64,000 nucleotides of DNA from positions 1-64,000 of IMG/VR virus record IMGVR_UViG_3300011115_000844; one strand, given 5' to 3'. Numbering within the stretch: the first letter of the stretch is position 1; every line of letters begins with the position of its first letter. The notes beneath the pieces were generated by a model, which did not search any database, was not told where the DNA came from, and saw only the letters and a list, made by a program, of their open reading frames with translations. This stretch comes from a virus. This document shows, piece by piece, positions 35,111 through 63,326 of the stretch. The position numbers and the translations under genes are program-made.

Positions 35111-35113
35111 AAA

Positions 35114-36977: not shown

Positions 36978-36990
36978 GTTTTTTAAATTT

Positions 36991-44881: not shown

Positions 44882-47722
44882 CTAACTTTTTTTTTTACCC
44901 ATATACTTACTTCTCATTGCTCCTGCAATTCTTTTTGCTGAATCTACGGCTTCTTTTTTATCGTATGTTTTACCATAGTCTTTTTGAACACTTGGAGAAA
45001 CTTTTTTACGTTTTAATAAACTTTGAGAAATTGATTTTACCTTATCATTGAAAGTGGTTGTACCACCTTCTCCTTTACTAATAATATATTTCTTATCATA
45101 TACCCCACCATTTTTACCACCACCACTTACCATAGTAGCATATTCATTTTTAACTTTCATTCTAAATGAATCAGCCATGTTTGGCAATTTAATAGTTACA
45201 GTTTTTCCAACGTATGTATTTTCAGATGTTTCAAATTCGTTTCTTTCTTTGTTTGTTATTATTCTTTTATAATCTTGGTTTAATTCTTTCATAGAAGAAT
45301 ACCCACCTTCATAAATTCCACCACCCTTACCAAATTTCGGGAACATTTTATATGTATCATGTTTTTCTAAATGTCCATATTTGCTAAATGTTTCCTTTGA
45401 CAAATGAATTGCTTTAATTCCATTTTGTTTTTCTAAACTATCGTATTTTTCTTCGGCTTCTGATTTACTATCAAATACTAAATCATTTACCTTATTACCA
45501 TCATCCCAAATTATGTGATAATAAGTTTTATTTTTTCTTTCGCTAATACTTGGAAAATCAGTCATGCCACCCTTCGCCATTTTGCCACCAAAAACTTTAT
45601 CAATGTTTGAAGCAAGTTTTTGTTCTCCATTCATTTGAGCAACATATTTAAACGCCATAGCAATGCCATATCCATCATACCCCGATTTTTGAGAAACATC
45701 AATACCTAATTCTCTTACATTATCATCAGCATCATAGTACTTAGACGAGTAAACTGAATTATCTCTCCATTCAGAATATTGAGGCGAACCAAATTCGGGA
45801 ACGCTTGACTTATCAGCGTATGGGTCTTTTGCCCATTCGGGTCTTTTCTCCAATATGCTTATAAATTGTCTTACTTCGGAATGGCTATTAGCATCAGTCA
45901 AACCTTCAACGAGTGCTTGTGCCAAAGCAATTGAATAATCATAACCTAAATCTTTTCTTGTTACACCTAATTCATTTGCTCTTTTTTGTGCGTATAAGTT
46001 CAAATCCCTATTAGTCATGCCACCGTCAGCAAACTTTTTGTAATGAGGATTTTTTGGTCTTGTTTTTCTTTTATAATCTTGCTCCCAACTTTGTTGCGAC
46101 TTAAACATTCTATCCCTACTTAAATTCGTTTCGCCACCATCAGCATATTGCCCCATCATTGTATGCACTTTAAACGCACCTTGCACATCTTCGTTCAAAT
46201 CTTGAAACTCTTGATTAGCAATTCCTACTATTTCGCTTTCCTTAACCCCTAATTCGTTAAAATGGTCAATCATGAAGTGTATTCTTTGGTCTTCAGATAA
46301 ACTGTTCCAAATGTCCTCTGTTGTTCTCCCACGATAGTTATTTGGAATACTACCACCTTTAGCCATTTTATCGGAAATAATCTCAATTTTATCAAATGAT
46401 TTTTTTTGTATTCTATAATTACTGCCTTGTATTTCTTTAGGAAAATCCCCATGAAAAACTAAATCGTCATAGGACTTTCCAACTGATGATTTTATTTTAC
46501 TCCCATTTTTCATAGTAACTAATAAATTCTTATTAGTTCTATTCAAATAATCCATCATATCGTAATCAATATCTTCAACTTTTATTATTCCTGCATTTGG
46601 AAATCCACCATTAGCAAGTTTTACTGCCATTTCATTAGGTGTGCTATCAGCATTCGCTAAGTAATTTTCGCCACTATCATTTTTTATAATTTGCAATTCT
46701 CCACCATCAGCAAATTTTTCTTCTCCATTTTCGTATGTTGCTATAACTTTAAAATACTTCTCCCAACCTTTTTCTTTAAAGTATTCTAAATCTTCTTCTT
46801 GACCCCAAGTAATTCTTTCTGATAATGATGCTACTTTCCTTCCACTATCTTTATTAAATTCATAATCAAAAACATAAGTTTTAGTTTTATTCCTTTTTGA
46901 AGAATCTTTAGCATCTTTTTTCACTTCCTCAATTCTATCTTTTATTTCGCCACCATCAGCAAATTTATTTGCCATATCGTACTCTTCCTTAGATATTTCA
47001 ATAGCGTTTGGAGGTGTTGGAGAAGCAATATTTTTTACTAAATAAGTGTAATAGGTGTTACCCTCTTTATCAACTTCTTTTATTTTATAGTAATCATTTC
47101 TTAGAACACCACCGTTTGCATACGAAGGGTACATATTCAATTCATATCTACCACTATCCATTCTGTATATCTGAATATTAGCAACGCCTTCTTTAGATTT
47201 ACCTTGCAATTGTATTGGTCTTGTTATCCTTGCAGTTTCTCCATACCCAATACCACCAACAGTTACATCGGGGAAATAATTATCAGAAGTAAACAAATAT
47301 CCTTCATTATGGAAAAAATCTTCTACTTCTTCTAACGCTTGTGCAAGTGTATCATGGTAAATTTTATAGCCATGAACCTTACCACCCTTTGCAAAGGTTT
47401 CGCCTTGATTTAATCTACTCAATAACTCACTTGCATTTATTGGTTGAAAATAAATATCCCTTTCAAGATTTAACCCGAATGGAGGCACTTTCATCATCTC
47501 TAAACTTTCCCTGCTTACAGAACCTACTTCTATTTCAAACAAGTTCACAATTGCCCAAATATAATCGGGGTCGCTTGGGTCTGAATTAAGCAAGTAAAAA
47601 GTTCCATTACCATAAGGATTAAATATTTTAGCTACAACCATTTGATTTTTAAGGTCATTGCCTAATTTATATTGACTAAATAATTTGTTGTCAATTTCTT
47701 TTGTAAATAATTTTTGACGCAT
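44882..47722 (-). CDS. Polyvalent protein: N-terminal DUF2958-like domain plus ~10 modules separated by [FYM]AxGG motifs
   Basis: AKIFNPYG..TFYL...LERD.YF; repeated FADGG/MAKGG/YANGG. Confidence 0.75.
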   Translation of the reverse strand: MRQKLFTKEIDNKLFSQYKLGNDLKNQMVVAKIFNPYGNGTFYLLNSDPSDPDYIWAIVNLFEIEVGSVSRESLEMMKVPPFGLNLERDIYFQPINASELLSRLNQGETFAKGGKVHGYKIYHDTLAQALEEVEDFFHNEGYLFTSDNYFPDVTVGGIGYGETARITRPIQLQGKSKEGVANIQIYRMDSGRYELNMYPSYANGGVLRNDYYKIKEVDKEGNTYYTYLVKNIASPTPPNAIEISKEEYDMANKFADGGEIKDRIEEVKKDAKDSSKRNKTKTYVFDYEFNKDSGRKVASLSERITWGQEEDLEYFKEKGWEKYFKVIATYENGEEKFADGGELQIIKNDSGENYLANADSTPNEMAVKLANGGFPNAGIIKVEDIDYDMMDYLNRTNKNLLVTMKNGSKIKSSVGKSYDDLVFHGDFPKEIQGSNYRIQKKSFDKIEIISDKMAKGGSIPNNYRGRTTEDIWNSLSEDQRIHFMIDHFNELGVKESEIVGIANQEFQDLNEDVQGAFKVHTMMGQYADGGETNLSRDRMFKSQQSWEQDYKRKTRPKNPHYKKFADGGMTNRDLNLYAQKRANELGVTRKDLGYDYSIALAQALVEGLTDANSHSEVRQFISILEKRPEWAKDPYADKSSVPEFGSPQYSEWRDNSVYSSKYYDADDNVRELGIDVSQKSGYDGYGIAMAFKYVAQMNGEQKLASNIDKVFGGKMAKGGMTDFPSISERKNKTYYHIIWDDGNKVNDLVFDSKSEAEEKYDSLEKQNGIKAIHLSKETFSKYGHLEKHDTYKMFPKFGKGGGIYEGGYSSMKELNQDYKRIITNKERNEFETSENTYVGKTVTIKLPNMADSFRMKVKNEYATMVSGGGKNGGVYDKKYIISKGEGGTTTFNDKVKSISQSLLKRKKVSPSVQKDYGKTYDKKEAVDSAKRIAGAMRSKYMGKKKS

Positions 47723-47725
47723 TTT

Positions 47726-48271
47726 TTAATTTTTATATTGAAACGTATGTTCTCTAACTGATTTTTGCCTTCCCATGATTGTATTGCGAATATCCGAAGA
47801 TGTGCAATTCAAATGTTTTGATGCTTTTGCTATTGATTTAAATTCATAAATAAAATTGCCATTTTTATCAAACATTAAAACAACTTTTTCATTATTAATA
47901 CTTGGCAATTTTAAACCAATTTTAAAAGCGTGTTTTTGATTTTCTGAATTAGTTGACCATTCTAAATTTATTTCAGAATTATCATTTTTAACTCCGTTAA
48001 TATGATTTACTTGTGGTTTATTTTCTTCATTATTAATAAAAGAAGACGCAACTAATCTATGCACTTTATATATTTTACCTTTACCATTTTTATACAAATC
48101 AACAACAACATATCCGTTTTTGTCCGAAGCCAAAGACCTAATTTTTTCTTTTAGTAATCTTTCCCCACCTTTTGAGTGCTTGACATATTTACCACAACTC
48201 TTTACCCTGCCTAAATTACTTACTTGGTAAAGTCCTTCATAGTTAACTACATCTTTCCAAACTTCGAGCAT
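47726..48271 (-). mobile_element. NUMOD4-HNH homing endonuclease
   Basis: EVWKDV..YEGLYQVSNLGRVKS; VHRLVA; VNHING.K.DN...NLEW. Confidence 0.92.
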
Positions 48272-48298
48272 ATTTTAATTTTTATTTTTTATTACATT

Positions 48299-49264
48299 TT
48301 AGATTGCTTCTTTTCTTGTACCTTTTGAAAGGTTTACATAAGCGTATTTGCCATCGTTCATTACTCTAATAGAACTTGAATCTATATCTGAAACATCAAT
48401 TATCTTATCCCCTACTTTCAATCCATGTTCAGTCATACCACCTTTAGCATACATACCACCTTCGCTTCTATGCGTTTCTCCACCATTGGCAAACATTGGG
48501 TTTGTAATATCCATTTGTGGTGTTAAATCAACATTTGAAAATGCAGTACCACCTACGTTTTGTAAACCTGCACCACTTGTATCAGAAAGTAAATCTATTG
48601 CACCACCATCAGCAAATTTTATACCTTCTTTGCTCATTTCTTTTCTTGCTTTAGCAATTAGTTTCAAATGCAATTCTTGTCTTTTTTTACCGTTTTCAGT
48701 TGATAAAAAACCTTCTTTGTCATGTAATTGCAATATTCTTTTTGCTTCTTTTAACTCACTTTCAGTTCCAAAATGCTTAGCCAACAAAACTACATTTTCG
48801 CTATGTGCATTTTCATCTTCATTTTCTAAATATTGGCTTTTTATTTTAGAATATGTCATGCCACCCTTTGCCATCATACCACCATCTTCTAATCTTGGGT
48901 ATTTTCTTGGAGGTTGTTTTCTATCGGTACGGTTTTCACGATATTCGTAGTAAGTGTTACCTTCTGCCGAAGTACGTCTGCCAATAGGTTTTGCAGGTCT
49001 TTGTGCATCTTGATAAATGTCTGATTTACCAAACGGTCTTGACTTGCTATATTTTCTTTTTATTTCTTTTGAAATTTCTTTAGCTTTTGAAACCTTTGAT
49101 GTAGTTGCTTTTGGTTTTTCTTTTGCTTTTATATCAGCAATATCTTTTTTGAATTTATTTACCAATAAACGTGCTTTTGCCTTTGCAGGTGGTTTAGTAG
49201 CTTTACTGTTAATACCTTTTTCTAATTTAGCAATTTTTTCTTGTAATTCTTTTATTGTTGCCAT
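48299..49264 (-). CDS. Basic modular protein with [FYM]AxGG motifs
   Basis: LEDGG, MAKGG, FADGG, FANGG, YAKGG; YYEYRENRTD module. Confidence 0.7.
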   Translation of the reverse strand: MATIKELQEKIAKLEKGINSKATKPPAKAKARLLVNKFKKDIADIKAKEKPKATTSKVSKAKEISKEIKRKYSKSRPFGKSDIYQDAQRPAKPIGRRTSAEGNTYYEYRENRTDRKQPPRKYPRLEDGGMMAKGGMTYSKIKSQYLENEDENAHSENVVLLAKHFGTESELKEAKRILQLHDKEGFLSTENGKKRQELHLKLIAKARKEMSKEGIKFADGGAIDLLSDTSGAGLQNVGGTAFSNVDLTPQMDITNPMFANGGETHRSEGGMYAKGGMTEHGLKVGDKIIDVSDIDSSSIRVMNDGKYAYVNLSKGTRKEAI

Positions 49265-49282
49265 TGTGTTTTTTTTATAAAA

Positions 49283-50374
49283 TTATGAATAATATCTGTT
49301 ATATAGTGAACGTAAATCTTGTAAATCTTTAATACCATCTTCATCACCTATTTCTGCCATAATCTCTGCCGAAGCAATCGCATCTTCTAATTCCTCTTTT
49401 GTAAATGGAGGTTTGTGTTCATGTTGTGAAGGCGTTGGTGGTTCGGGTGGTGTTGGAGGTGTTGGAGGTTCGGGAGGTGTTGGAGGTTCGGGTTTTGGTG
49501 TACGAGGTTTGCGTTGTGGTGGTTGTGGTGTTGGTGGTTGTGGCGTTTGAGGTTGTGGTGTTGGTGGTAATGCGTGAACATCATTTTGTGGCAATGTTTG
49601 TTGCTCCAATTTAACATTCATGTTACCATAAAGACCTAAATTTTGTGTCCTCAAAAAATCCATCAATTGTCGCATCCACGTTACAATTAATTCAGCCAAT
49701 TGTTCTTTTTGGTTTGAATCAACACTTTCACTATAAATTTCTTGCGAACCTTCAATTATCGCAACAAATTCCTTTATGTCTTCGGGAAAATTATCTGATA
49801 CTTGTTGTGGTACTTGCAAGTAATTTAAAACCTTACTACTGTTACCCGTAAATGTTGGTGCAGGTACTTGTTGTGTGGGCATTTGTGGTAACGCTTTATT
49901 TTCCAACCAACCTATATCCATGAGCATTGGTACTATGTTTTCCTTTCTTGTTTTATTTAAGAAAAACTTTGTGCCATCTGAAAACCCTATCATTGTATCA
50001 GTCAATTCGGTTATTTCTAAATTTGAATAACCACCCCCACTTGCATCTTTTACATTTAACGTATCACCAATAACTGCAAAATCAACTAACTCCCAACTTT
50101 GCCCATTTTCTAATTGAAATAATATTGTTTTATCGCCTTTTTTCCTATCTCTATCTTTATCGTCTTGTTCAAGTCCATTTGGAAACCAAAGATTCAAACT
50201 ATCATAACCAACAATTTTTGAAACAGTAAATAAAGTGCTTGACCCATCGTTTAATTTAGTATCAAAAAGTATGAAAGCGTATTTACCAAGATACGATTCA
50301 GCCAAATCCTCTAAATCTTGTTTAGAAAGCGAATTTATTTTGTCTTGTAATATCCTATTTACTTTATTTTCCAT
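49283..50374 (-). CDS. Hypothetical protein with Pro-rich linker and acidic C-terminal helix
   Basis: PPTP/PEPP repeats. Confidence 0.7.
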   Translation of the reverse strand: MENKVNRILQDKINSLSKQDLEDLAESYLGKYAFILFDTKLNDGSSTLFTVSKIVGYDSLNLWFPNGLEQDDKDRDRKKGDKTILFQLENGQSWELVDFAVIGDTLNVKDASGGGYSNLEITELTDTMIGFSDGTKFFLNKTRKENIVPMLMDIGWLENKALPQMPTQQVPAPTFTGNSSKVLNYLQVPQQVSDNFPEDIKEFVAIIEGSQEIYSESVDSNQKEQLAELIVTWMRQLMDFLRTQNLGLYGNMNVKLEQQTLPQNDVHALPPTPQPQTPQPPTPQPPQRKPRTPKPEPPTPPEPPTPPTPPEPPTPSQHEHKPPFTKEELEDAIASAEIMAEIGDEDGIKDLQDLRSLYNRYYS

Positions 50375-50687
50375 TCCAATTAAATTTAGTTAGTCCTTGT
50401 ATGTACGTTAATATTTCATTACTGTTTCTAAACACTTCTGTCATCATGTCCATTTCGTAAAAGTTTCCATTAGGTTCAACAAAAAAGTTTTTTGTTTCAG
50501 TAACGGGAACGAAATTATCATTATAACCTTCAATAATTGTAGATACAATAACTATGTTTTTATCTTCGATATTATTCTCATTTCTAAGCACAATAAATTC
50601 GCAATAATCATCAGTTGCAAATTGGTCGCAATTCTTTTTATTTTGCTCAAAAAATGATTTAATAATTTGTAATTGTTCTTTTGTCAT
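50364..50687 (-). CDS. Hypothetical protein
   Basis: Overlapping operon ORF. Confidence 0.65.
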   Translation of the reverse strand: MTKEQLQIIKSFFEQNKKNCDQFATDDYCEFIVLRNENNIEDKNIVIVSTIIEGYNDNFVPVTETKNFFVEPNGNFYEMDMMTEVFRNSNEILTYIQGLTKFNWNGK

Positions 50688-51982
50688 AAAGTAGATATTT
50701 GATTGATAACTGTATTATAACTATCTAATGCTTCATTTTCAGTCATTGCAGGTGGCAAAACTATTTTACTATTTGATATTTGCGAAGCCAACCTATCGCT
50801 TTCACTACTTTGTTTAGAAAGATACTCTATGTAAGTGCTTTTAATATCGGAAATATTAGTATTAACACTACCTATACTACTTGTAAAATCACTTTGACTT
50901 GTATAACCTGCATCATACAAACTTGCATAAAATGTTCTAAACATTTGTACTCTAAAAAATCGCATATCACTTACCAATAAAGAAAGTTGGTTTTTGTCCA
51001 ATGGTTGATTTTCATTTTTTATGTTTACAAAATCATAAATAAATTTTCCATTAACCTTTAAACCGTAACAAGCAATTACTCTATAATCTACATTCGCTTG
51101 TGTTAATCTTTCACAAATTGAAGCCATTGCAATACTATTCCAAAAAGATTCATTACTTGTTTCGCCCCATGAATAAGAAACGGGTATAATAATATCAACT
51201 CTTGGTAGAGAACTTTCTATTTTTGGAATATTGATAAAACACTTTTTAAAAGTAGTTGCAAACTTATCTTTTCCATTTTTATCTTTTGCTTGTTTTCTTT
51301 CTACTTCGTGTCTTTTAATTTCCAATTTTTCGGGGTAATACAAAATAATTATTTTGTCTTCTCCTTCCTCTTGTAATAATTCGTTCTTATCAACATTTCT
51401 TTTTAAAACATCGCTATAATAACCACCCTTACTGCCAACATATTCTATTTCATGTTTTGGAATATAAGGATTGCCAACATAGTAATAAATCTTTTTACCA
51501 TCAGATACAGTTTCGCTTTTTACAAGATTAGGAGAAACCAATTCATTTAATAAAGGCGAATAATATTCATATACACGAATTAAACCTAACGAAGCCAAAT
51601 CAAAAGAAAAAATACCAATTTCCTTTTCAGTAAATTCAATTTTCTTTACTTGGTCTATATCATTAAAATCGTATTTACTTGCTCTTGTTGTTAGTTTTGT
51701 TGATTCCGATTCAACATCGTTTATTTTGGTATATCTATCTAAATTTTGATTTACAAAATCAGAAGACAATGTTCCATATTTTTCTTCACCATCACTATCA
51801 ATTGACCTTTGTACTGTTTGTTGTAAACGTGATTTATCCCAATACCCTCTTGCAGTATTATATTGCGTTGAAGTAGTTGGCACTTTGCTAACTACTTCAT
51901 CGGTAAAATCCTCTACATCTTTTATTGAATCAAAATAAAAGACAGTTTTATTGGGTGATAATTTTAGTTTTTTATACGCCAT
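50684..51982 (-). CDS. Putative VWA-like partner of the MoxR ATPase
   Basis: Directly downstream of the AAA+ gene; VDIII..SYS strand followed by ICERL..ANVDYRV helix-strand. Confidence 0.5.
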   Translation of the reverse strand: MAYKKLKLSPNKTVFYFDSIKDVEDFTDEVVSKVPTTSTQYNTARGYWDKSRLQQTVQRSIDSDGEEKYGTLSSDFVNQNLDRYTKINDVESESTKLTTRASKYDFNDIDQVKKIEFTEKEIGIFSFDLASLGLIRVYEYYSPLLNELVSPNLVKSETVSDGKKIYYYVGNPYIPKHEIEYVGSKGGYYSDVLKRNVDKNELLQEEGEDKIIILYYPEKLEIKRHEVERKQAKDKNGKDKFATTFKKCFINIPKIESSLPRVDIIIPVSYSWGETSNESFWNSIAMASICERLTQANVDYRVIACYGLKVNGKFIYDFVNIKNENQPLDKNQLSLLVSDMRFFRVQMFRTFYASLYDAGYTSQSDFTSSIGSVNTNISDIKSTYIEYLSKQSSESDRLASQISNSKIVLPPAMTENEALDSYNTVINQISTL

Positions 51983-51985
51983 TTA

Positions 51986-54457
51986 TTATGGTTCTATTTT
52001 TTCAGCAACAAAGAAATCTGAATATTTTTTAAATATTGAAGAAACACTATTGGCAACACTATCATTCAAGGTTGATACCATATTGCCGTTTATAATTTCT
52101 TTAATTGTTTCATCAACCTTTGATTTTATAAACGCAGGTGTAAATTTACTTTTGGTAATAATTATATCAACCGTTGTTTTATCAAATGCTACTAAAAAGC
52201 TATCAAACGCTTTTTGTAAAGTTTTACCTTTATTTATTCCAACATCTTTACCTTCACTTTTAGCTATTGCTCTTACTAATTCAATTTCAAATGCAACTCT
52301 AAAAGAAACCAATGTACGATAAGACACTACTGCAAGGTCATCAAGTGACAAATCTTTCAAAATTGTTCTAAGTCCTTTTGCTTCGGGTGGTGTTTGATTA
52401 TTTTTTATTGCTTCGGTATATTCATAATAGTTACCTACCAACATTTCGTAAAGAAATTTAAACCTTGAAGTCAATTCATCAATTGGTTTGCTATACTCTA
52501 CTTTATAAACGCTACCCGAAAATCTATCTAATAAAGATAAATCTTGCTGATTATTTGCCTTATATTTTTTTGGTGGTGCAGTATTTGGATAAATGTTACC
52601 CGTACCAATCAAAGCAAAATTTTCATTTCTTGGTATTGGTGCTTCTTCGGGATTTGTGCTACTAATCATAGCATTCTTTGATTCCCTTGTTTTAGAAGAT
52701 TTAGCAAGTGCATCATTAAATAAACCTGCCGTATTAGGGTCAAGACGAGGCATTTCATCAAGAATTAAAATTTTACCATCCCTCCACGCATTGATTAATT
52801 TACCTTCTTTATAACCTTCAATCGTTTGCCCACCTAAAATTTCAGTTGGCGAAGTATATTGTGAACAGTTAATAATTAAATATTCTCTTTTTAATTTTTT
52901 TGCAACTTCTTCTGCCGTATATGTATTGTGTGTTACAATATAATCATCTGTAATGTAAAGATGTGTTGGGTTAGTTACCGATATACATCTTGTTTCTAAT
53001 TCTCCAACATATTCAACCTTGTCAATAAATCTTTTAATACCGTATTTTGTTGGTTTTTTATATCTATCCTTTTTATAAGTAAGTTTAAATGGTTGTATTT
53101 CATCAGGGAAAACACAAAAAATTCTATATGCAGTATGTCCTTCTTTTTTTACTCCATTATAGTTATAGTATGGTGTTTTTTCTGTTTTTTTAGCCGTTCC
53201 ACCTAAACTTCTAACTAATTCACAATAATCATTTGCTAAACATTCGCTTGAAGTACAAAATTCAAAATGAGTATTATCGCTATAAGCATCTGTATCATTT
53301 AAACCTTGTAATAAAGCAATTCTATTTTCAATGCTATCGTATAAATACTCTTCGGGAATAAATTTATGAATAGATTTTTTGCCATGCAATTTAAGTCGAA
53401 TCAATTCCTCTTTTAATGGATTTGGTAAAGACATATTCGTTCTTACTAAGCCATAAGTTAAGCATCTATTTTCGCTTTCTCTTTCAACTAACTCAATACC
53501 TTCGGGTAATACAAGCGAATCAAATAATTCTTTACTTGGATTGCAAATTGATAATGATGTTTGACTTATACTTCCATCTCCTAAAATAACACCCAAAGTG
53601 TATGGATTTATTTTATGTGAAATGCTATCAAATTCAATTGCTTTGTTTATATCAATATAAGCATTTGCATTATTATCGCCTATTTTGATTTTATTCATAA
53701 ATTCTTTTAATGGTAACACTCTACCATCATTACCTTTACCTCTGTCGTTCCTTGTATAAATTTTCCATAAATGTTCATCACAAGTATCAACAAAGCCACC
53801 ATCGTTCATAAAAACTCTATAAACAGATTTTTCGCCTCTATCAAAAACTCCATTTATTTCGTAAAGTTTACCATCTTCACCAAAAACTTTATCGCCTTCT
53901 TTTACATCGGCAAATGTAATCCAACCTTTATCAGATAAAACTTTTGTGTATAATGGACTTGCTTTACCACCACCTGCTTCTCCAATTAAATAAACATTAT
54001 TACCTGCCAATACATCGTCAATAACTTCAAAGAAATATGGAATTTCCGAATCTCTTTTACTTACTTCTATTTTAAACCCACCAAAATTAGGAAGTTCAAG
54101 AATAACCTTTTGGTTTGCTTTAATAAACTCCATTACATCATTATCTAATTCCGTAAGGTTAACCTTATCAGTAACTAAGTAATCTTCAATAATTTTTCTA
54201 ACTTGAACGCTATCTACACCACTACCTTGCCCACCCATCATTGTTGCTCTTAAAGTTGCTAATGCAGTTTGAGAATAACTTGTAGGTGTTGCAGGTTGAT
54301 TAGGTGTAGGCATTGGTGTTGGGTCAACTTGTGCTAATTCTATTTCTAACTTATCAATAGTTTCTTGGACTAATTTTTTTGCATTGACATCTGTAATGGT
54401 GTTCAATGCTTCCCTTAGTGTTACCAATTCATCTAATATTTCTTCTTTTCTTGTCAT
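51986..54457 (-). CDS. MoxR/CobS-like AAA+ ATPase containing an intein
   Basis: Walker A GEAGGGK|T split by the intein; LILDE Walker B; LLDRF arginine finger. Confidence 0.88.
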   Translation of the reverse strand: MTRKEEILDELVTLREALNTITDVNAKKLVQETIDKLEIELAQVDPTPMPTPNQPATPTSYSQTALATLRATMMGGQGSGVDSVQVRKIIEDYLVTDKVNLTELDNDVMEFIKANQKVILELPNFGGFKIEVSKRDSEIPYFFEVIDDVLAGNNVYLIGEAGGGKASPLYTKVLSDKGWITFADVKEGDKVFGEDGKLYEINGVFDRGEKSVYRVFMNDGGFVDTCDEHLWKIYTRNDRGKGNDGRVLPLKEFMNKIKIGDNNANAYIDINKAIEFDSISHKINPYTLGVILGDGSISQTSLSICNPSKELFDSLVLPEGIELVERESENRCLTYGLVRTNMSLPNPLKEELIRLKLHGKKSIHKFIPEEYLYDSIENRIALLQGLNDTDAYSDNTHFEFCTSSECLANDYCELVRSLGGTAKKTEKTPYYNYNGVKKEGHTAYRIFCVFPDEIQPFKLTYKKDRYKKPTKYGIKRFIDKVEYVGELETRCISVTNPTHLYITDDYIVTHNTYTAEEVAKKLKREYLIINCSQYTSPTEILGGQTIEGYKEGKLINAWRDGKILILDEMPRLDPNTAGLFNDALAKSSKTRESKNAMISSTNPEEAPIPRNENFALIGTGNIYPNTAPPKKYKANNQQDLSLLDRFSGSVYKVEYSKPIDELTSRFKFLYEMLVGNYYEYTEAIKNNQTPPEAKGLRTILKDLSLDDLAVVSYRTLVSFRVAFEIELVRAIAKSEGKDVGINKGKTLQKAFDSFLVAFDKTTVDIIITKSKFTPAFIKSKVDETIKEIINGNMVSTLNDSVANSVSSIFKKYSDFFVAEKIEP
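52925..53962 (-). mobile_element. Class 3 (Ala1) intein with LAGLIDADG endonuclease, 346 aa
   Basis: Starts ASPLYT and ends VTHN|T; TCDEHLW (block B Trp), RCISV (block F Cys), THN (block G Thr); LGVILGDG and LQGLNDTDA motifs. Confidence 0.9.
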
Positions 54458-56016
54458 TTTGTGTATTTTAATGTAATGTTTAATGCTTTAATTTGATTTT
54501 CTATAATTCTTGTATTTTCATCAGTTGTAGGGTACTTTAAAACTAAATTGAGTGCTTTTATTTGATTTTCTATTGTTGCCCTATCTGATGTTGGTGTTGT
54601 TTGTGTAGGTTCATCAATAAATTTTATTCTGCCCTTATCTATCCATTCATTTTTTGCACTTACTTCACTAATCCATAAAAAATCATTAATTATATCTCCA
54701 CCCTTGTTTGTCCAATTCAAATAAATGTTATTGTTTTTAATACTGTTAACTTCATAAACAATATCTATATCATCATCTACAATTACAAATTTATCTCCAA
54801 CTTCAAATTTTCTATTTGATGTAGGAGTAGAATCGGGTTTAGGGAAAAATGCAGGGTTTAAATATGTTTTGAATTTTAAATCTTTTTGACTTTCAAAATA
54901 ATCTTGATATTCTTTGCGTTTTGTTTCTCCAAAATAACCCATTAAACCTAAAAAATTATTTAATGAATGGTAATTTTCATTTTCTAAAACATTATAAACT
55001 CTTCTTTTTTGACTTTCTTCGGCATTTATGAATAAATTAAATAAATCCTTTTTCATGTAATTTATTATTCTTGCCTCTAATCTTATTACATAATTTTCTT
55101 GCAAAGAAATATCGTTGTATAATTGACCTCCCGATTTTATTTTTAATTCATCCCATATATATTCATCGTAATCTGCAAAAGATTTTGCAATTTCACCTAC
55201 TTCATCATTTGTTAAAAGAGGTTTTGATTTTGGTTCGGGTTGTGGTGTTGGCGTTGGTTCATTTTTAGGTGTGTAATATTTTAAAAGTATTTCACACAAT
55301 TTTTTAGATACTTCATTTACATCAGTAATAAGACCCCACTTGCTAAATGTTTGTGTTTTCTTAGTCCACTTAAAACCCGTTTGCATATAAATATCGCCTT
55401 GAATCTCACCCCAACTTTCTCTGTTTTGAGGTGTTTCCTTGTCTTTAACTAAATTGTAAACGAAAGTATCTTGATATGCCTTTACATACAATTTCCAACC
55501 TGCACATTCTGTAACTAAATCACCCCATTCAAAATTACTTCTACCACTACTTCTGCCACCACTTGTTGTAGGACTTGCATTTTTAAGTATTTTTTCCCAA
55601 TCGGGAGCAGGTTGGTCTTTTTCTTTGCTATCGTAAGGAGGATAATTATTTACGTGCAAATATTTAGTGCCAACTGATATAGTACCTAATGATGTATCTA
55701 TTGAACCACGTTTATAATTATGCCCATCGTAATATTCAAAAATATCTAACTCTTTGATAATTTTTATTATGTACTCTTCGGGTATTCTATTAAAATAAAC
55801 ATCAATAGCATCACCACCTGCAAATTTTCTACTTTTAACCCACGAAATACCTCTACCCGAAAATTTAGGATATTTGCTATCTACCCATTGCCTAATCATT
55901 TTTGAAGTACCCGTTACCGTAACTGAAATATTCGTATCGCTATAAAAGTATGCTTCGATACCTTTATACTTTACACCATCGTATGTAAAATCAATATTTT
56001 TTTTAGAATTTGCCAT
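54454..56016 (-). CDS. Polyvalent protein with LPD29-like domain and duplicated C-terminal helix
   Basis: SKMIRQWV..KYPKF...KSRKFAGGDAIDV; IENQIKALN twice. Confidence 0.65.
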   Translation of the reverse strand: MANSKKNIDFTYDGVKYKGIEAYFYSDTNISVTVTGTSKMIRQWVDSKYPKFSGRGISWVKSRKFAGGDAIDVYFNRIPEEYIIKIIKELDIFEYYDGHNYKRGSIDTSLGTISVGTKYLHVNNYPPYDSKEKDQPAPDWEKILKNASPTTSGGRSSGRSNFEWGDLVTECAGWKLYVKAYQDTFVYNLVKDKETPQNRESWGEIQGDIYMQTGFKWTKKTQTFSKWGLITDVNEVSKKLCEILLKYYTPKNEPTPTPQPEPKSKPLLTNDEVGEIAKSFADYDEYIWDELKIKSGGQLYNDISLQENYVIRLEARIINYMKKDLFNLFINAEESQKRRVYNVLENENYHSLNNFLGLMGYFGETKRKEYQDYFESQKDLKFKTYLNPAFFPKPDSTPTSNRKFEVGDKFVIVDDDIDIVYEVNSIKNNNIYLNWTNKGGDIINDFLWISEVSAKNEWIDKGRIKFIDEPTQTTPTSDRATIENQIKALNLVLKYPTTDENTRIIENQIKALNITLKYTK

Positions 56017-59000
56017 TTATTTTATTTATTAAATTTTCAACATAATTAATAGAATTACTAATTGGTTTTTTAATTACATCGTTGTAAGAAGTTGTCAATT
56101 CCTTTACAATATCAAAATCAGAAATCAAATTCCCCCCAAATTTATATTTTTTTCCCATACATTTACAAGATTTTTGATTTATTTCGCCACCTTCTTTAAA
56201 AGAAACCCCTCCACCCATTTCATTAATAGTAGAAAGTATTTCTCTATTCGTCATCATTTTACCTTCAAATTCTCTTTTTGTATTGTCTGCAACTGAACGC
56301 TTGTTTATAATAACTTCGTTTCCTTCAACCTCTAACATTTGCCCCGTATCTTTATTAACTGCCTTAATTCCACCATCTGCATGGCTTCTACCATCAAAAA
56401 AACCACCCTTCTTCGCATCGTTGGTATGTTTACCATCGCCTTTTACTGTACCACCTTCGGCAAATTTATTTACACCAATTGTGTTTCTAAGCATTTGTGC
56501 TTTTGACATATTTTCTTGTTGCATATCTTCTTGGTTTAATTCTGTTAATGAGCCACCGTCTTCATATCTTATATCTTCTTTGAAAGGGTCAAAGTCAATG
56601 TTTCTGCCATCAGCAAGTTTAACTTGGTTAGCATCAAAAATTGTCCACGCTTTTGTAAATTCAGCAGGGTTATCTACATCGTACACTCCTTTAAACTCTT
56701 CTGCATATCTAACACCATCAAAACCATGCGACATTAAAAAGTATTTAAACTCTTTTTTAGTATCTCTTGCCATTAATAACCAAAATGGCTTATCGTCAAA
56801 TCCAAAAGTAGCATAAATGTATGTACCTATTTGTTCCAAAACTACTTTTAAAGTTTCTGCCCATTGTTCGTCTGTAATGTTTTCTCCATAATTTTTTTTG
56901 GCTATTACTTTTGAAATTTTCATTCCCCAACCAATTTGATTATCAAGTTCATCGTAAAAATCTTCTGTAATAGCCATGAACGGGTTTCTAATGTTCAAAA
57001 AGCACTTATACAACAATTCCAAACCATGTTGCCCTCTTTGTGAATTAGTAGTGAAATTTTGACTGTATTCTATGTTATCAGCGAAATATCCATAAGGTCT
57101 TCCAACTCCTTCTTTTTTGGTAACGTCAAACGTATAAAATTCCTCTTTGAAGTTAGTACCATGATACACCACTTGTGGTTCTAATGTAGTTAAATCAATA
57201 ACAATAGAACAATTTTTATAGTGTTGTAAAAAGTTACTTTTATCATCTTGTAAAAACGATTTAGCACATTTTTCCCAATCTCCAAACCACTTTTTAAATT
57301 CAGTTGTACGCACTAAAACTTGTTGAATATAATTCAGTTTTGTTGGTTGTTTTGTTGGTGTGTTTAATTTGAAAATCATATCTACTTCGCCACCGTTTGC
57401 ATAAGCCGAAATTATTTTTGGCAAATATGTATCAGCATCCATTTTCATTGTATCTAATTCCTTTTCCATTTCGCTTAATTTTTGATAATAATAAGGACTT
57501 TCGTTTAAATGGTCTAATGCTATTTTACTTGCAATAGATTTATCGTTTGTGTGTTCCATTTCAAATTTAATTCCCAATTTTAATTGCGAATTAATATATT
57601 CCAAAGGTAACTTAAATTTAGTAGCTATCTTGTGTACATTTGTGTCAATCTCGCTTTGAGTTAAACCTTGTAATTCGCCACCTTTTTTGTAAAAAGATAT
57701 ATCGGCAAAATTTGGGTTGTCCATACGTTGTACTGTATCTTCTATGCGAACATCCATTTCGCCACCATCAGACATTTTATTACTATTCAATGGTTTTAAT
57801 TCATAAGTTTTAATAAACTCACCAACTGTAAATAATTCAAGTTCAGTTATATTATTTTGTTTCAACTTTTTTGACATTGTATTCCAATCATCCACTCCCC
57901 ATTTGAAATTAAAACTTTCTAACTCTTTAGATTCTATTGCAATATTTGATAAATCACCTCTTCTTACATTTGCTTGAAACGAACCTTTACCTTCAAATGG
58001 AGAGTAATTATTACCAACGTAAGTTTGTTCAACATTTGTATAAATTGTTATCCCCGAAAATGTCTTTGAATATTTAAACCCTTTTGTTGCACCTCCGTTA
58101 TCGTATTTCATGATTGAACTTTTTTTAGGGTTATGCCCCCATATTAATAATGATGTATGTTTTCTTGTTTTGTTACCCTTGTCATCGTACAATTCGCCTT
58201 GCATTCCACTCATGCGACTGATAAATGATATTTGCTTATTTGCCCATTTCCACATAGTATCAGTCCACTTATCTTTTGGTGTGGTTTTCATCTTCATAAT
58301 CATTCTTGCACTTTCTCTACCACTACTAATGCCTTGTTTATTGGCTTCGCTTGTTGAAAGTCCTGCTTCTTTCCCTTCCTTTGAATCGTAAAACCTTTTC
58401 AATTCTCCATAACTCATATTTACAATCGACTTCCATTTTGCGTAGGTTTCATTGTGTTCATCTACTTCGCCACCATCAGCATAGCCAATCGGGTCAACAT
58501 CGTAATACATTCTATTGTCAAACATACAAATATGACAAACATATTTATCAAACGCTTCAGATTTTTTTGTATTCCATTCATGTCTACATCTTCTACATTT
58601 AATGTCTTGACCTACTTCGCTACTATCAGCGTATTTTGGCAATCTTTTCATAAACTCTTTGTTCGGGGTTAATTCAAAACCAAAACTTTGATAATACTCA
58701 ATTAATTCGTTTCTTGTTTTTGTATTACCTATTGGTGTAGGTTCTAAATAAATCGTAACTCTATATTCATCGGCTTTATCAACTATTTGTTGCAAATACT
58801 TATATGCTTTTACGGATTTATTACTTTTTTCAAACTTGTCAAAAATAACAACATTATCTTCTTTAAATGGTCTTAATTCATTTGGTAATGCAATTATTAT
58901 CGTTATATCATTTTTTATACCTTTATACCAATCAATATACCATTTATAGAACAAACCTACTTCGCCACCATCAGCATATTTCATATCGGTAACATTCATT

Positions 59001-59692
59001 AATTTATAAAAATCATTGTTCCCATCAATAGTATTAAAACCCGATTTTTGAAGCATTGATTTTATTACATCAATATTAGGTTCTGCTTTTTGAGTTATAT
59101 GTCCAAAAATTAAATCGTGTCCATTTTTATCAGCATATTCAATAATGTATTGCATAACCTTAGTACCAATACCTTTCATTCTATTGCTTTTAGAAACTAT
59201 TAATGATTGAACGTATAAAGGGTTTTTAGCATCAAAACCATATATTTTGCTATGCTCATTGGTTGTACTAAACATTTTTAATTCAACTACTCCATCATTA
59301 ATTAATTTATCTATTTCGCCACCTTTAGCGTATTTCATCAAATCATCATCTTGAACGTATGCTTTCTTAACCTTTGTGCCACCTGCTTTTAAAAGAAACT
59401 TATTTACCCTTGCCATTGCCCATCCACCCCTTGTAATATTCGGTCTATGTGATGTACTGTATGCTCCCAAACCTCTACGGTAAACTGCTTTTAAATCATT
59501 TAAAGTAATATTTTCGTTATCGTGTTTTTCTCTAAATTCCTTTAACTTATTATTTAATGCCACAATAGTTTTAGCATCAAATTTTATTTCAGTTGCAGTT
59601 TTTTCTGACGAAGCACTCCCTTTTGAGTTTACCTTAGAACCTTTAATCCTATCTTTTGCAGGTGCAGGTGTTTGTGATAATGACTTAGCCAT
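56003..59692 (-). CDS. Large polyvalent protein: two GNAT-like domains, Zn ribbon, DUF3140-like, DUF5661-like and ADP-ribosyltransferase (ART-PolyVal-like) modules separated by YAxGG motifs
   Basis: RMKGIGT; LIEYYQSFGF; CRRC..CHIC; VNMS...WGHNP; EMEHT...ALDHL.E; FKKWFGDW..YHGT..GFDG; GRSHADGGI..EGNE. Confidence 0.8.
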   Translation of the reverse strand: MAKSLSQTPAPAKDRIKGSKVNSKGSASSEKTATEIKFDAKTIVALNNKLKEFREKHDNENITLNDLKAVYRRGLGAYSTSHRPNITRGGWAMARVNKFLLKAGGTKVKKAYVQDDDLMKYAKGGEIDKLINDGVVELKMFSTTNEHSKIYGFDAKNPLYVQSLIVSKSNRMKGIGTKVMQYIIEYADKNGHDLIFGHITQKAEPNIDVIKSMLQKSGFNTIDGNNDFYKLMNVTDMKYADGGEVGLFYKWYIDWYKGIKNDITIIIALPNELRPFKEDNVVIFDKFEKSNKSVKAYKYLQQIVDKADEYRVTIYLEPTPIGNTKTRNELIEYYQSFGFELTPNKEFMKRLPKYADSSEVGQDIKCRRCRHEWNTKKSEAFDKYVCHICMFDNRMYYDVDPIGYADGGEVDEHNETYAKWKSIVNMSYGELKRFYDSKEGKEAGLSTSEANKQGISSGRESARMIMKMKTTPKDKWTDTMWKWANKQISFISRMSGMQGELYDDKGNKTRKHTSLLIWGHNPKKSSIMKYDNGGATKGFKYSKTFSGITIYTNVEQTYVGNNYSPFEGKGSFQANVRRGDLSNIAIESKELESFNFKWGVDDWNTMSKKLKQNNITELELFTVGEFIKTYELKPLNSNKMSDGGEMDVRIEDTVQRMDNPNFADISFYKKGGELQGLTQSEIDTNVHKIATKFKLPLEYINSQLKLGIKFEMEHTNDKSIASKIALDHLNESPYYYQKLSEMEKELDTMKMDADTYLPKIISAYANGGEVDMIFKLNTPTKQPTKLNYIQQVLVRTTEFKKWFGDWEKCAKSFLQDDKSNFLQHYKNCSIVIDLTTLEPQVVYHGTNFKEEFYTFDVTKKEGVGRPYGYFADNIEYSQNFTTNSQRGQHGLELLYKCFLNIRNPFMAITEDFYDELDNQIGWGMKISKVIAKKNYGENITDEQWAETLKVVLEQIGTYIYATFGFDDKPFWLLMARDTKKEFKYFLMSHGFDGVRYAEEFKGVYDVDNPAEFTKAWTIFDANQVKLADGRNIDFDPFKEDIRYEDGGSLTELNQEDMQQENMSKAQMLRNTIGVNKFAEGGTVKGDGKHTNDAKKGGFFDGRSHADGGIKAVNKDTGQMLEVEGNEVIINKRSVADNTKREFEGKMMTNREILSTINEMGGGVSFKEGGEINQKSCKCMGKKYKFGGNLISDFDIVKELTTSYNDVIKKPISNSINYVENLINKINGKF

Positions 59693-60032: not shown

Positions 60033-61301
60033 TTATAAAGTTTTTTTAAATAAATCTACCCAAGTCTTTGATATTATTTTCCAATCAAGACCTTGCATAT
60101 ATTTATAAGCGTTATCAATTCTCTTATTATAGTTTTCTAAAAAATTAATATCTTCATAATCACCCTGCATTCCTTTTGCTATGTAAAGTATCATATCAGC
60201 AACATCAATATAATCACATTGTTGTCTTATCGTATTATCAAAAGTAGTTGATATAGGAATTAGTTTATCAATTGTGTATGCTCTTTTACCGTTATCAGTC
60301 ATTTCAATAAATGAAGTTGAGTTAGGACAAATAACGGGTGTTTTAGTAGCCATTGCTTCTGTTAGTGTCAAACCCCAACCTTCGCCAAGTGTTGTGGTTA
60401 AATATACGTCAGAGGCATTGTAAATCTTATTTAGCATTTCTATACTTGCTCCATTGTTAGCTAAATCAATATCCAATAACTTATAATCTTTCCCTTCAAT
60501 TAAATCTGTTTGTGCAAGAATACATCTAATATCCCAACCCATCGGGTCTTTTGGGTGCATATGTAGGTATAAAAATGGTTCTTTCTCAATTTGATTTTCT
60601 TCCCATTGTTTTTTTGCTTCAATAAATGAAAATATAGTTGTAGGTATATCCTTTCGGGGTTGATTCCTATTTATGTTTGTAATAATAAACTTATCAGCAT
60701 TTCTTCCAAAATATTCCTTTCTAAATTCTACAATTTCTTTTTGAGGTAATGGGAAAAATTGCTTTGGGTTATTACCATGAGGTATAACTTTAATTTTCTT
60801 TTTTAATTCGGGTTTGTGTTTCAAAACTTCTTTTCTACCATATTCGGTATATGCAACTATACAATCAAAAAAATCTAACCCATCTGTAAGTTTTTCAACA
60901 AGTGGTGCGTCAACGGGAAAATAAAATATGGACTTAAATTGTTTTTTGTTAGTAGCAATCTTTTCATCAATAATTGTTTTTAAAATTGATGTTATTGGCA
61001 AAATAACCCCTAAATCTTGAATGATAAAAATACCATCGTATTCGTCTGTATCTTTCAAAATTTTAAGAAAACCAAACCTACCAAAATCATCTTTCTTTGT
61101 TGCTGATTTTACTGCCGATATAACGTAAGTGCCATCTTCTTCTGTATATGGTTCTCCGAAATAATTAATAGCACAAATATCCAATTGAATATTATTTCCA
61201 AAATTATTCTTTAATTCTTTCTTTATATTGTGTGAAACTGTGGCAAACCCCGTATGGCAATTATAATCGCCTAAAAATAATACTTTGTAACTCTTTTCCA
61301 T
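60033..61301 (-). CDS. GT4-family (GT-B) glycosyltransferase
   Basis: TGFATV, IPHG, NRNQPRKD, YNASDVY...GEGWGL..TEAMA. Confidence 0.9.
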   Translation of the reverse strand: MEKSYKVLFLGDYNCHTGFATVSHNIKKELKNNFGNNIQLDICAINYFGEPYTEEDGTYVISAVKSATKKDDFGRFGFLKILKDTDEYDGIFIIQDLGVILPITSILKTIIDEKIATNKKQFKSIFYFPVDAPLVEKLTDGLDFFDCIVAYTEYGRKEVLKHKPELKKKIKVIPHGNNPKQFFPLPQKEIVEFRKEYFGRNADKFIITNINRNQPRKDIPTTIFSFIEAKKQWEENQIEKEPFLYLHMHPKDPMGWDIRCILAQTDLIEGKDYKLLDIDLANNGASIEMLNKIYNASDVYLTTTLGEGWGLTLTEAMATKTPVICPNSTSFIEMTDNGKRAYTIDKLIPISTTFDNTIRQQCDYIDVADMILYIAKGMQGDYEDINFLENYNKRIDNAYKYMQGLDWKIISKTWVDLFKKTL

Positions 61302-61332: not shown

Positions 61333-62058
61333 TTACAATGTTTTTAAAACAATTCCTCCAAATATACCAATTCCAAACCAAAATAACTTACTATCTAATA
61401 TGGTTTTTTTATCCTTAACTACAACATTTTTTAACTTGCTTACATCAAGATATGGGTTACTATTGCTAACTTCTACTACTGCTTCTTTTTTTAATTTCAA
61501 AAAACCACTTTTTTTATAGCCAAGCGTAACTACTGATTCGTTGGTTAATAAAAAACTATCCAACAACAAACCTTTCTTTTGAACCTTACCGTACATACTA
61601 AACCATTTTTCCTCCATTTTAAATGGTTGTGGCACTATTACGCTATTGTTCAGTAAACTATCAATTAAATACCTTGAACTATCTCCTTTTTTTATTCTTG
61701 CCATCCAAACTGATGTATCGGCAAAATGTGTTGGAATAAAGGGAACAAAAATGCTATCTATTTTAATCTGTTGCTTTTGGCTAATTTGACTTTGTACTAT
61801 TTTTATATCCCCATTAAGTTTTAAAACTCCCAATTTTAATGCTTCAAATTGTGATAACAACATTTGATTTTGAGTTGCTAATGTACTGCTATCCTTTAAT
61901 GTTTTTTTTTGAAAGTTATTTTGAAGGTCAACATATTTAGTTGAATTATCCAATAAATTATTGTAATCTTTTTGTATTTCACAACCTTTATAAAATAACA
62001 TTATTATTATAAACGTAAGAATTACTATGATTATTCGATTAAAATTTAGTTTATTCAT
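61333..62058 (-). CDS. Membrane protein with N- and C-terminal TM and coiled coil (possibly spanin-like)
   Basis: Start moved to MNKLN; NSNPY motif; two terminal TMs. Confidence 0.5.
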   Translation of the reverse strand: MNKLNFNRIIIVILTFIIIMLFYKGCEIQKDYNNLLDNSTKYVDLQNNFQKKTLKDSSTLATQNQMLLSQFEALKLGVLKLNGDIKIVQSQISQKQQIKIDSIFVPFIPTHFADTSVWMARIKKGDSSRYLIDSLLNNSVIVPQPFKMEEKWFSMYGKVQKKGLLLDSFLLTNESVVTLGYKKSGFLKLKKEAVVEVSNSNPYLDVSKLKNVVVKDKKTILDSKLFWFGIGIFGGIVLKTL

Positions 62059-62977
62059 TTTTTGTTTTTTTATTAAATACCATTTTAACACCTTCATTTA
62101 ATTGTATTGGGTTGAAATCTTCTCCATAAACAATAGTATAAGTTGCTGAAAGGTAATCAATATTTGCTTTTGTAAAAAATTGGTAATTAGATTCATCAAA
62201 TGGGTTATCTACATATCGAATTTGCCCTTTAGTGTGTTTTATAATTTCGTTGGCTAATTGTTCAAAAGAAACTGCCACCCCACTCCCTACATCAATAATC
62301 AATTTGTAAGGCAAATAATCGAATACAATAAAATATTTTAATAAAAGTAAATGTACTCTATTTACATCGTCTATGTGAACGAAATCCCTTTTTATGTTTT
62401 CGCTACCATAAAACAAATCATTTTGCAAAATACCATTGTTGTAATTATCAATCCATTTGCTTACTATTGAAGCCATGCCACCTTTGTGACTTTCAGTTGA
62501 ACCATATACGTTATGATAACGTAAAGAAACCACCATATTTGCAGGTTTTGTCTTTAGATACTGTTCAACTACTGCTTTGCTATTAGCATATTCGCTTTGT
62601 GGAGCAATTTTATCATCTGTTCGCCAAGCACCATACACCGATGCTGATGAAGAAAAAACCAATGGGATATTCCTAATTGAATTTTCATTTATAAAATCAA
62701 TTGAAAAATTAATGTTTTGATATAAACATTCTTCTTTTGTTGCCCTTGTTGATGAATTTCCCCCTATATGAAAAGTAAAATCAACTAAGTTTAAAAAATC
62801 GTAGTATTTATTTTTAAAAATAAACTCCCAATCAATAAACTTTTCAATACGCAAATCTTTTCTTAATGGTTTACTATCGTAATCAATTGCAATAATGTCA
62901 TAATAATTATTATCATTAAGCATCTTAATTAATTCGCCACCAATAAAACCACTTGCACCCGTTACACAAATTCTCAT
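62051..62977 (-). CDS. NAD-dependent nucleotide-sugar epimerase (HldD/RfaD-like)
   Basis: VTGASGFIG, SSSASVYG, YANSK, RYHNVYG..E.HKGGMAS, RDFVHIDDV. Confidence 0.85.
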   Translation of the reverse strand: MRICVTGASGFIGGELIKMLNDNNYYDIIAIDYDSKPLRKDLRIEKFIDWEFIFKNKYYDFLNLVDFTFHIGGNSSTRATKEECLYQNINFSIDFINENSIRNIPLVFSSSASVYGAWRTDDKIAPQSEYANSKAVVEQYLKTKPANMVVSLRYHNVYGSTESHKGGMASIVSKWIDNYNNGILQNDLFYGSENIKRDFVHIDDVNRVHLLLLKYFIVFDYLPYKLIIDVGSGVAVSFEQLANEIIKHTKGQIRYVDNPFDESNYQFFTKANIDYLSATYTIVYGEDFNPIQLNEGVKMVFNKKTKNE

Positions 62978-62978
62978 G

Positions 62979-63326
62979 TTATTTAATTTCTTCTGCTTGT
63001 TCAATATTATCCGATAATTTTTCCTCTTGCAATTTCTTTTGTTCTTTTATGAACTTGATTAAATTATCAGTAAATTCTTTACAATACTCTACATCAAATC
63101 GTTTAAAATCTTCATCCCTTAATTCCATTGTATCGTATTCCAATGGGTATTGTATCTCATGGCTTCCCGTTTCGGGTATGGTAGGTATGCTGATAACTAA
63201 ATAGTGTTTAGATATTTCATCATCAATTGCTTTTGCAACAAATACGTCTATATCGTTGTACTTAAATGTTTTTGAGTATTGATTTTCGGCTATTAAATCA
63301 ACCCCTTCGATTTTAATTAATTTCAT
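62979..63326 (-). CDS. Hypothetical protein
   Basis: Operon ORF. Confidence 0.65.
   Translation of the reverse strand: MKLIKIEGVDLIAENQYSKTFKYNDIDVFVAKAIDDEISKHYLVISIPTIPETGSHEIQYPLEYDTMELRDEDFKRFDVEYCKEFTDNLIKFIKEQKKLQEEKLSDNIEQAEEIK

Follow-up and report, generated by a model that had tools for sequence, protein, structure and literature searches.

The first 64,000 nucleotides of the 74,101-bp IMG/VR record IMGVR_UViG_3300011115_000844, an uncultured virus with inverted terminal repeats (ITRs), contain three genes whose products (P0001, P0002, and P0003) join unrelated protein modules through many copies of a short Gly-Gly peptide, referred to here as the seam. We call this 64-kb stretch the window, and the coordinates of all genes and sites are window positions. 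The seam separates effector modules and is both sequence specific and lineage restricted: it is found where one module is fused to the next, but not at natural termini. No description of the motif or of Gly-Gly phage polyproteins was found in the searchable literature, and as far as that literature goes, the seam is undescribed. We tentatively read each seam as a protease processing site, for which an M48-like zincin of the same virus is the best candidate enzyme. The metagenome bins that hold relatives of this virus are mostly Bacteroidota.

A repeated seam in three modular proteins

An earlier note, made from the sequence of the window, had described a repeated Gly-Gly motif in three genes, and translation confirmed all three as minus-strand open reading frames (ORFs). 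They lie upstream of the virion-gene block and on the same strand as that block.

44882-47722, minus: P0001, 946 amino acids (aa)
48299-49264, minus: P0002, 321 aa
56003-59692, minus: P0003, 1229 aa

Across 1,191 unique sites, the sequence logo of the seam reads [KR]-[YMF]-[AE]-[DKEN]-G-G-x-[IVLTM]. It is informative on both sides of Gly-Gly: the pair itself is invariant, the residue before it varies among D, K, E, and N, and the aliphatic position two residues after it carries 1.76 bits. A strict pattern, [FYMWL][AES][DKNEQ]GG, matches 9, 5, and 7 times in P0001, P0002, and P0003, respectively (21 matches), and elsewhere in the 74,101-bp genome no ORF is matched more than once. With an iterated position matrix the corresponding numbers are 8, 5, and 10 (23 matches), with zero matches in the other six-frame ORFs of at least 60 aa anywhere in the genome. 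Three degenerate copies (LANGG, FGKGG, and YADSSE) bring the total to approximately 26; the motif that the earlier note had recognized is therefore real, but its count of 25 to 30 copies was slightly high. From composition, 0.09 matches per 1000 aa would be expected by chance, or approximately 0.2 in the 2,496 residues of the three proteins.

Word-indexed searches returned 361 metagenomic homologues, 241 of similar length and 120 shorter, and every one of the 361 carries the seam. The strict pattern occurs in them 1,376 times in 228,000 residues (6.0 per 1000), and the position matrix matches the short set at 6.8 per 1000. Seam density is 0.079 per 1000 in the long ORFs of 65 other phage loci with ART-PolyVal and 0.05 per 1000 in 150 zincin-family proteins. 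This confinement of the motif to one lineage argues for a co-evolving factor acting in trans. The spacing from seam to seam in homologues has a median of 87 residues, and 101 tandem doublets were found in which the two copies stand exactly 6 residues apart, the aliphatic position of one copy being the hydrophobic start of the next. Seam load ranges from 7 to 52 per genome within the lineage. The richest relative seen is a 73-kb virus with a 2,786-aa ORF (24375-32732 of that genome) that holds 28 seams and a 1,421-aa ORF (32736-36998) that holds 15.

The modules joined by the seams are unrelated to one another. P0003 consists, in order, of DUF5824 (residues 59-113), GNAT (146-238), a GNAT-like module, a Zn ribbon (CxxC...CxxC, 366-392), DUF3140 (420-515), an unknown module, DUF5661 (688-745), ART-PolyVal (838-1034), a short module, an invariant C-terminal domain, and a tail. 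The DUF5824, GNAT, DUF5661, and ART-PolyVal matches are above the Pfam cutoffs, and that to DUF3140 is close to its cutoff; ART-PolyVal (PF18760) scores 45 bits against a cutoff of 31.2 (E value, 2.3e-11). Most of the module calls in the earlier note were borne out by these Pfam matches, and the Zn ribbon is visible both in the sequence and in homologues, but the second GNAT domain appears only as a low-confidence alpha/beta prediction. The cassette-like, polyvalent character that had been proposed for these proteins agrees with the presence of effector-type Pfam domains together with ART-PolyVal. Homologues add Zeta-toxin kinase, RelA/SpoT, and methylase modules to this repertoire. P0003 has 10 matrix-positive seams plus one decayed copy in which GG has changed to SS.

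Seams of P0003:
59312-59332, minus: YAKGGEI
58958-58978, minus: YADGGEV
58613-58633, minus: YADSSEV, decayed copy between the GNAT-like module and the Zn ribbon
58463-58483, minus: YADGGEV
58085-58105, minus: YDNGGAT
57755-57775, minus: MSDGGEM
57671-57691, minus: YKKGGEL
57383-57403, minus: YANGGEV
56546-56566, minus: YEDGGSL
56444-56464, minus: FAEGGTV
56180-56200, minus: FKEGGEI

P0002 begins with a basic N-terminal module, followed by four short modules, and has five seams, including one tandem doublet. P0001 begins with DUF2958 (residues 6-94, Pfam), which is followed by approximately eight modules without a known family. Eight of its seams are matrix positive, and two further copies (LANGG and FGKGG) are near the threshold.

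Seams of P0002:
48872-48892, minus: LEDGGMM
48854-48874, minus: MAKGGMT
48596-48616, minus: FADGGAI
48473-48493, minus: FANGGET
48431-48451, minus: YAKGGMT

Seams of P0001:
47375-47395, minus: FAKGGKV
47102-47122, minus: YANGGVL
46943-46963, minus: FADGGEI
46694-46714, minus: FADGGEL
46346-46366, minus: MAKGGSI
46127-46147, minus: YADGGET
46013-46033, minus: FADGGMT
45560-45580, minus: MAKGGMT

Across all relatives, P0003-like proteins are most strongly conserved in the C-terminal domain (56120-56440, minus; P0003 residues approximately 1085 to 1190). Five residues there (G, H, E, E, and N) are invariant (G-R-S-H-x-x-G-G-I ... E-V-E-G-x-E-V-I-I-N), and from this conservation the domain looks like an enzyme or binding site. 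It matched no Pfam family, no relative was found in the PDB, and AlphaFold modeled it with low confidence. Among named Atlas clusters, crAss cargo protein 1 comes closest, with a score of only 0.79.

Position of the seam between modules

Every Pfam domain of P0003 and P0001 falls between consecutive seams. We modeled residues 30-1229 of P0003 with AlphaFold from a 43-sequence alignment (mean predicted local distance difference test [pLDDT] score, 60). All 10 seams of the model lie in segments with a pLDDT below 50, which make up 39% of its length (p approximately 8e-5). Narrow pLDDT dips at model residues 92-96, 734-743, and 1132-1142 are centered on seams between confident domains; Gly-Gly comes after the last helix turn, and the next domain begins directly behind it. 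The motif therefore occupies module boundaries, as the earlier note had claimed, and not the interior of folded domains.

That note had also proposed comparing module order with related genomes, and the comparison points the same way. In all-against-all BLAST, homology breakpoints that lie inside both proteins show a 3-fold enrichment at distances of up to 5 residues from the motif, with alignments that begin at its aromatic residue and stop just past Gly-Gly. Modules are reshuffled between genomes, with the breaks in homology at seams (single-linkage clustering of the modules gave one cluster). Natural termini flank the motif as well. The equivalent of Met-1 of an N-terminal module lies within 8 aa of the upstream internal Gly-Gly of another protein in 487 of 609 cases, and natural C termini stop 0 to 12 residues ahead of the next Gly-Gly in 62% of cases. 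For example, the end of P0001 (...KKKS) aligns to ...KKK-FKEGG-KTIAQTPAP in homologues, which run on into DUF5824, the first module of P0003. When Zn-ribbon modules are aligned, homology likewise breaks at the seam, and the junction linking the GNAT-like module to the Zn ribbon reads K-Y-A-D-G-G-E-V in most homologues, with SS in this genome.

Longer proteins have more seams (r = 0.69; approximately 0.54 per 100 residues). A copy lies within 30 aa of the N terminus in only 6 of the 241 homologues of similar length, and 20 or fewer aa follow the last copy in only 3. Taken together, the linker position, the breakpoints, the natural termini, and the seam number indicate that the motif is a junction element and not a tag owned by each module.

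Possible processing of the seam

If the seams are processing sites, the three genes would encode true polyproteins, in which unrelated enzyme or binding modules are joined by a recognition peptide. A viral protease acting in trans would cut each seam and free modules of 60 to 280 residues, either as particles mature or once the proteins have been delivered into the host, and the best candidate for this cutter would be P0005, a zincin of the virion-gene block. The scissile bond might follow Gly-Gly, as with adenain, African swine fever virus (ASFV) pS273R, and PLpro, or it might immediately precede the conserved aliphatic residue, making that residue the P1' that zincins usually select. Cleavage, the identity of the enzyme, packaging in virions, and injection are all inferred.

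Gly-Gly-X sites are used in virion maturation by adenain and pS273R, and poxvirus I7L uses AG-X. The resemblance to adenovirus and ASFV sites that was pointed out earlier holds as a pattern match only: the seam shares with the sites of adenain and pS273R (pp220/pp62) a hydrophobic P4, Gly-Gly at P2-P1, and repetition, there within virion precursors and here within putative ones, and the P4-hydrophobic/Gly-Gly pattern is also like that of PLpro sites. Unlike adenain-type sites, the seam in addition needs Ala or Glu at P3 and an aliphatic side chain at the second residue past Gly-Gly. A further likeness, to the processed core proteins of adenoviruses, is the very basic N-terminal module of P0002 (residues 1-124; 48893-49264, minus), which has 37 K+R versus 14 D+E in 124 aa and could be a DNA-binding or DNA-condensing protein set free at the first seam.

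P0005 was the only protease candidate named in the earlier note, on account of its HExxH motif.

33359-34141, minus: P0005, 260 aa, N-terminal beta-sandwich (residues 1-90) and M48-like gluzincin domain (104-249), candidate processing protease

The motif is H186-E187-x-x-H190, followed by E200 and D204. Its family comprises 762 representatives at 50% identity, and P58, H186, E187, H190, E200, D204, and R240 are invariant in 125 family sequences. The AlphaFold model (pLDDT, 96.6) consists of the beta-sandwich and an alpha/beta domain. Aligned with VIA-align, residues 107-253 match Escherichia coli BepA (6sar_A) with a Z score of 8.6 (root mean square deviation, 3.9 over 119 residues), and 3c37, Ste24, and ZMPSTE24 with Z scores of 6.4 to 6.7 (6.4 to 6.6 for Ste24 and ZMPSTE24); the BepA score is only just above the stated background of the tool, 7 to 8. 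Like the M48/M56 minigluzincins (BepA, HtpX, Ste24, and BlaR1), P0005 has HExxH and a downstream helix with an acidic ligand; unlike them, its acidic residues come only 10 to 14 positions after the second His, and it is a soluble domain with a CBM-like beta-sandwich fused to it. Sub-threshold Pfam matches among the 125 family members were to PhageMetallopep (21), SprT-like (13), and M48 (10), and also to M56 and M78; P0005 itself has no Pfam match, and no member of the family reaches a gathering score. A Foldseek search of the model against the PDB matched the N-terminal beta-sandwich only, and a P0005 profile run against PDB sequences returned nothing meaningful. Judging from the model and the invariant residues, P0005 is a real, conserved M48-like zincin. 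Its gene is present in 10 of 10 near-complete motif-bearing relatives and absent from 36 other phage records, which are without the motif-rich proteins of the lineage, and it is the sole recognizable peptidase kept in all complete relatives.

P0005 is not, as had been thought, the only peptidase in the window: a CHAP cysteine peptidase is encoded near the left genome end (1543-2181, minus; E value, 1.2e-11). It is probably a lysin, and it is unlikely to be the processing enzyme because it was found in only one of five relatives. Pfam searches found no peptidase domain in P0001 to P0003.

Polyvalent proteins of other phages offer the closest comparison for the modules themselves. By its sequence, P0003 qualifies as one, with at least two unrelated effector-type domains and the signature ART-PolyVal. 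Like the proteins surveyed by Iyer, Burroughs, Anand, de Souza, and Aravind in 2017 (PMC5512222), those described here carry unrelated conflict-type domains in one chain, including ART-PolyVal, GNAT, and DUF2958. Iyer et al. predicted that polyvalent proteins are processed by a zincin peptidase, and we found no discussion of a junction motif or linker in their paper. In their proteins the MPTase is fused in, whereas the 260-aa zincin of this virus has a core gene of its own; this virus also differs in having ITRs and no terminase, portal, or HK97-type capsid match in the ORFs scanned. Elsewhere, zincin domains are fused to cargo proteins in some crAss-like phages. Processing of phage proteins of this broad kind has precedent, as DarA and DdrB of phage P1 undergo it.

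The seam also occurs outside this lineage. The cargo protein gp45 of crAss001 (PF25725), like our proteins a modular virus-encoded protein of a Bacteroidota virus, has two matrix-positive seams, FAEGG at residues 260-264 and FAYGG at residues 559-563, whereas this genome has 23 seams and one relative as many as 52. In the cryo-electron microscopy structure, residues 214-245 of gp45 were resolved in the tail barrel and residues 425-552 on the portal (Bayfield et al. 2023; PMC10172136), and the seams sit just past these two segments. The crAss-like phages differ from our lineage in being tailed and without this zincin family. PF25725 (crAss_CARG1) had no match in this genome at an E value of 10 or less, and an hhalign comparison of the P0003 C-terminal domain with gp45 was not significant (probability, 0.1).

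Several observations count against processing by P0005 or against processing altogether. The co-occurrence of P0005 with the motif is confounded by common descent, and to our knowledge, Gly-Gly specificity has not been described for M48-type zincins. A six-frame hidden Markov model search of the 74,101-bp genome gave no Peptidase_C5, C48, or C57 match (PF00770, PF02902, and PF03290) at an E value of 10 or less, in line with the failure of the earlier note to recognize an adenain/Ulp1-type protease, although a very divergent member could escape such a search; no C39 or Prok-JAB protease was found in the six-frame searches either. The failure to detect a clan-CE protease in this complete genome sets it apart from adenain-type systems. 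Among 50,697 GenBank phage records there is no homologue of P0005, and crAss001 is without this zincin. The crAss001 structural study gives no cleavage of gp45, which is described as one chain spanning the portal (PMC10172136). Because the seam occurs in two unrelated groups of Bacteroidota viruses, only one of which has this zincin, confidence in P0005 as a universal enzyme is lowered, and this sharing keeps open a host factor, lineage-specific proteases, or an uncut role. Some junctions are fused without any motif: where the GNAT-like module meets the Zn ribbon, two homologues that share the upstream module have S-G, and in two others the motif is deleted. A few proteins hold the motif 3 to 12 aa from a terminus, where cutting would gain little.

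A rival reading is a seam that is never cut and serves as a conserved flexible connector, which we regard as somewhat unlikely. The modules would fold separately, like beads on a string (and would unfold and refold separately if ejected), with a recombination joint and cassette mosaicism as a side effect. The location of seams in short predicted linkers suits this explanation, as do the exact coincidence of homology breaks with seams and the exchange of modules between genomes. Codon usage within this genome could be taken in the same sense. The codon pair GGT-GGC is used at 11 of 21 seams, though GGC makes up 10% of Gly codons, and the seam Ala codon is GCT at 11 of 18; the seam codons are thus homogenized within the genome (GCT-GAT-GGT-GGC), and the P0003 copies at 58958-58978 and 58463-58483 share 21 identical bases. 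A RecT protein (13565-14470) would be in keeping with recombination at such joints. Relatives, however, use other codon pairs at their seams, which led us to reject a universal DNA-level constraint on the motif; within a genome, homogenization or recombination at seams could plausibly occur as a secondary consequence. The sequences of ordinary linkers are not conserved, whereas the seam has seven positions with class-specific residues (Y/M/F, A/E, and aliphatic), which argues for selection at the protein level and not at the DNA level. The polyvalent proteins of other phages also manage without the motif, so that a generic need for hinges leaves its confinement to certain lineages unexplained.

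Processing also has to be weighed against two roles in which the seam is recognized for another purpose. The packaging or docking tag offered as an alternative in the earlier note seems to us distinctly unlikely. A virion component (the capsid interior, the membrane, a portal-like vertex, or a scaffold) would bind the seams and load the proteins multivalently into particles. The motif has two hydrophobic anchors around a tight turn, as many peptide-binding motifs do, tandem doublets would increase avidity, some short proteins of relatives have a copy near each end, and the copies in gp45 lie just past the segments that bind the tail barrel and portal. One tag per protein would suffice for docking, yet the copies follow the number of modules; terminal modules normally lack the motif, and natural termini flank it and do not include it. 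It is because motif number tracks module number and terminal modules are normally without the motif that a tag fits less well than a junction.

Least probable of all, in our estimation, is a different process at the same residues: posttranslational modification, self-cleavage at Asn/Asp-Gly without any protease, or cleavage by a protease of the Bacteroidota host that unrelated viruses use in common. Modification could be the work of the neighboring GT4 glycosyltransferase, a core gene beside P0003 in all relatives, or of the GNAT or ADP-ribosyltransferase modules, and Lys, Asp, or Asn often precedes Gly-Gly. These residues interchange with Glu at that position, however, leaving no fixed modifiable or self-cleaving residue, and GT4 is tied to the polyvalent proteins by gene order alone. 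The occurrence of the motif in two unrelated groups of Bacteroidota-infecting viruses would fit a host factor; we know of no host protease with this specificity.

The processing reading could be extended to a polyprotein strategy of a large linear double-stranded DNA (dsDNA) virus lineage of Bacteroidota, a proposal that is rather doubtful as a whole. A stand-alone virion zincin would cut h-[AE]-x-G-G-x-h and free up to approximately 50 modules per genome. The code would be common to crAss-like cargo proteins, which would give Bacteroidota viruses a general "cargo processing code" that parallels, in prokaryotes, the Gly-Gly-X maturation of adenovirus and ASFV. Polyvalent and cargo proteins are thought to act before any other viral molecules in an infected bacterium, and a conserved junction peptide provides a handle on how such long strings of enzymes are deployed. 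The seam predicts module boundaries in hundreds of uncharacterized proteins and names testable bonds, including some in the cultivable phage crAss001, along with a candidate enzyme. If the seams are cut, prokaryotic dsDNA viruses would have an explicit polyprotein system whose site is like those of adenovirus and ASFV. If they are not, they would represent a natural in-frame joint for the exchange of effector cassettes, with a bearing on the evolution of counter-defense repertoires and on the design of modular fusion proteins.

Virus lineage and gene neighborhood

Related IMG/VR genomes are 61 to 102 kb long and share a common gene order of glycosyltransferase, P0003-like, AAA_5 ATPase, DUF7192, P0002-like, and P0001-like. 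The core common to four complete relatives is small, consisting of the HExxH protein, a capsid candidate, proteins of 130, 282, and 324 aa, PAP2, GT4, and the polyvalent genes.

37051-37839, minus: capsid candidate, 262 aa, beta-rich, with paralogues
38205-39053, minus: 282-aa core protein with an N-terminal Walker A motif (GKRGVGKS)
41787-42434, minus: PAP2 lipid phosphatase, core gene
47726-48271, minus: HNH/NUMOD homing endonuclease, between P0002 and P0001
50684-51982, minus: DUF7192 protein, syntenic, with the AAA_5 ATPase, to the polyvalent genes in relatives
51986-54457, minus: AAA_5 (MoxR/CobS-like) ATPase, 823 aa, with an intein-type homing endonuclease insert (Hom_end/LAGLIDADG, residues approximately 367-439)
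60033-61301: GT4 glycosyltransferase, core gene adjoining P0003 in all relatives
62051-63004, minus: NAD-dependent sugar epimerase/dehydratase, near GT4

An Atlas search with the capsid candidate gave no match, and neither a portal nor an HK97-type capsid was matched in the ORFs scanned with Pfam or PHROGs. "Terminase" PHROG matches were limited to the intein-bearing AAA_5 ATPase. The lineage may be tailless and membrane-containing, which fits the combination of ITRs, a Walker A ATPase, PAP2, and a non-HK97 capsid candidate. We considered the capsid candidate as a possible seam substrate and rejected it: its N-terminal FFNADGGM is not a matrix match, and the Gly-Gly is not kept in two relatives. 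The genome also encodes a RecT single-strand annealing protein on the plus strand (13565-14470). The P0002-like and P0001-like genes are directly adjacent or overlapping in relatives, and in this genome the HNH/NUMOD homing endonuclease stands between them.

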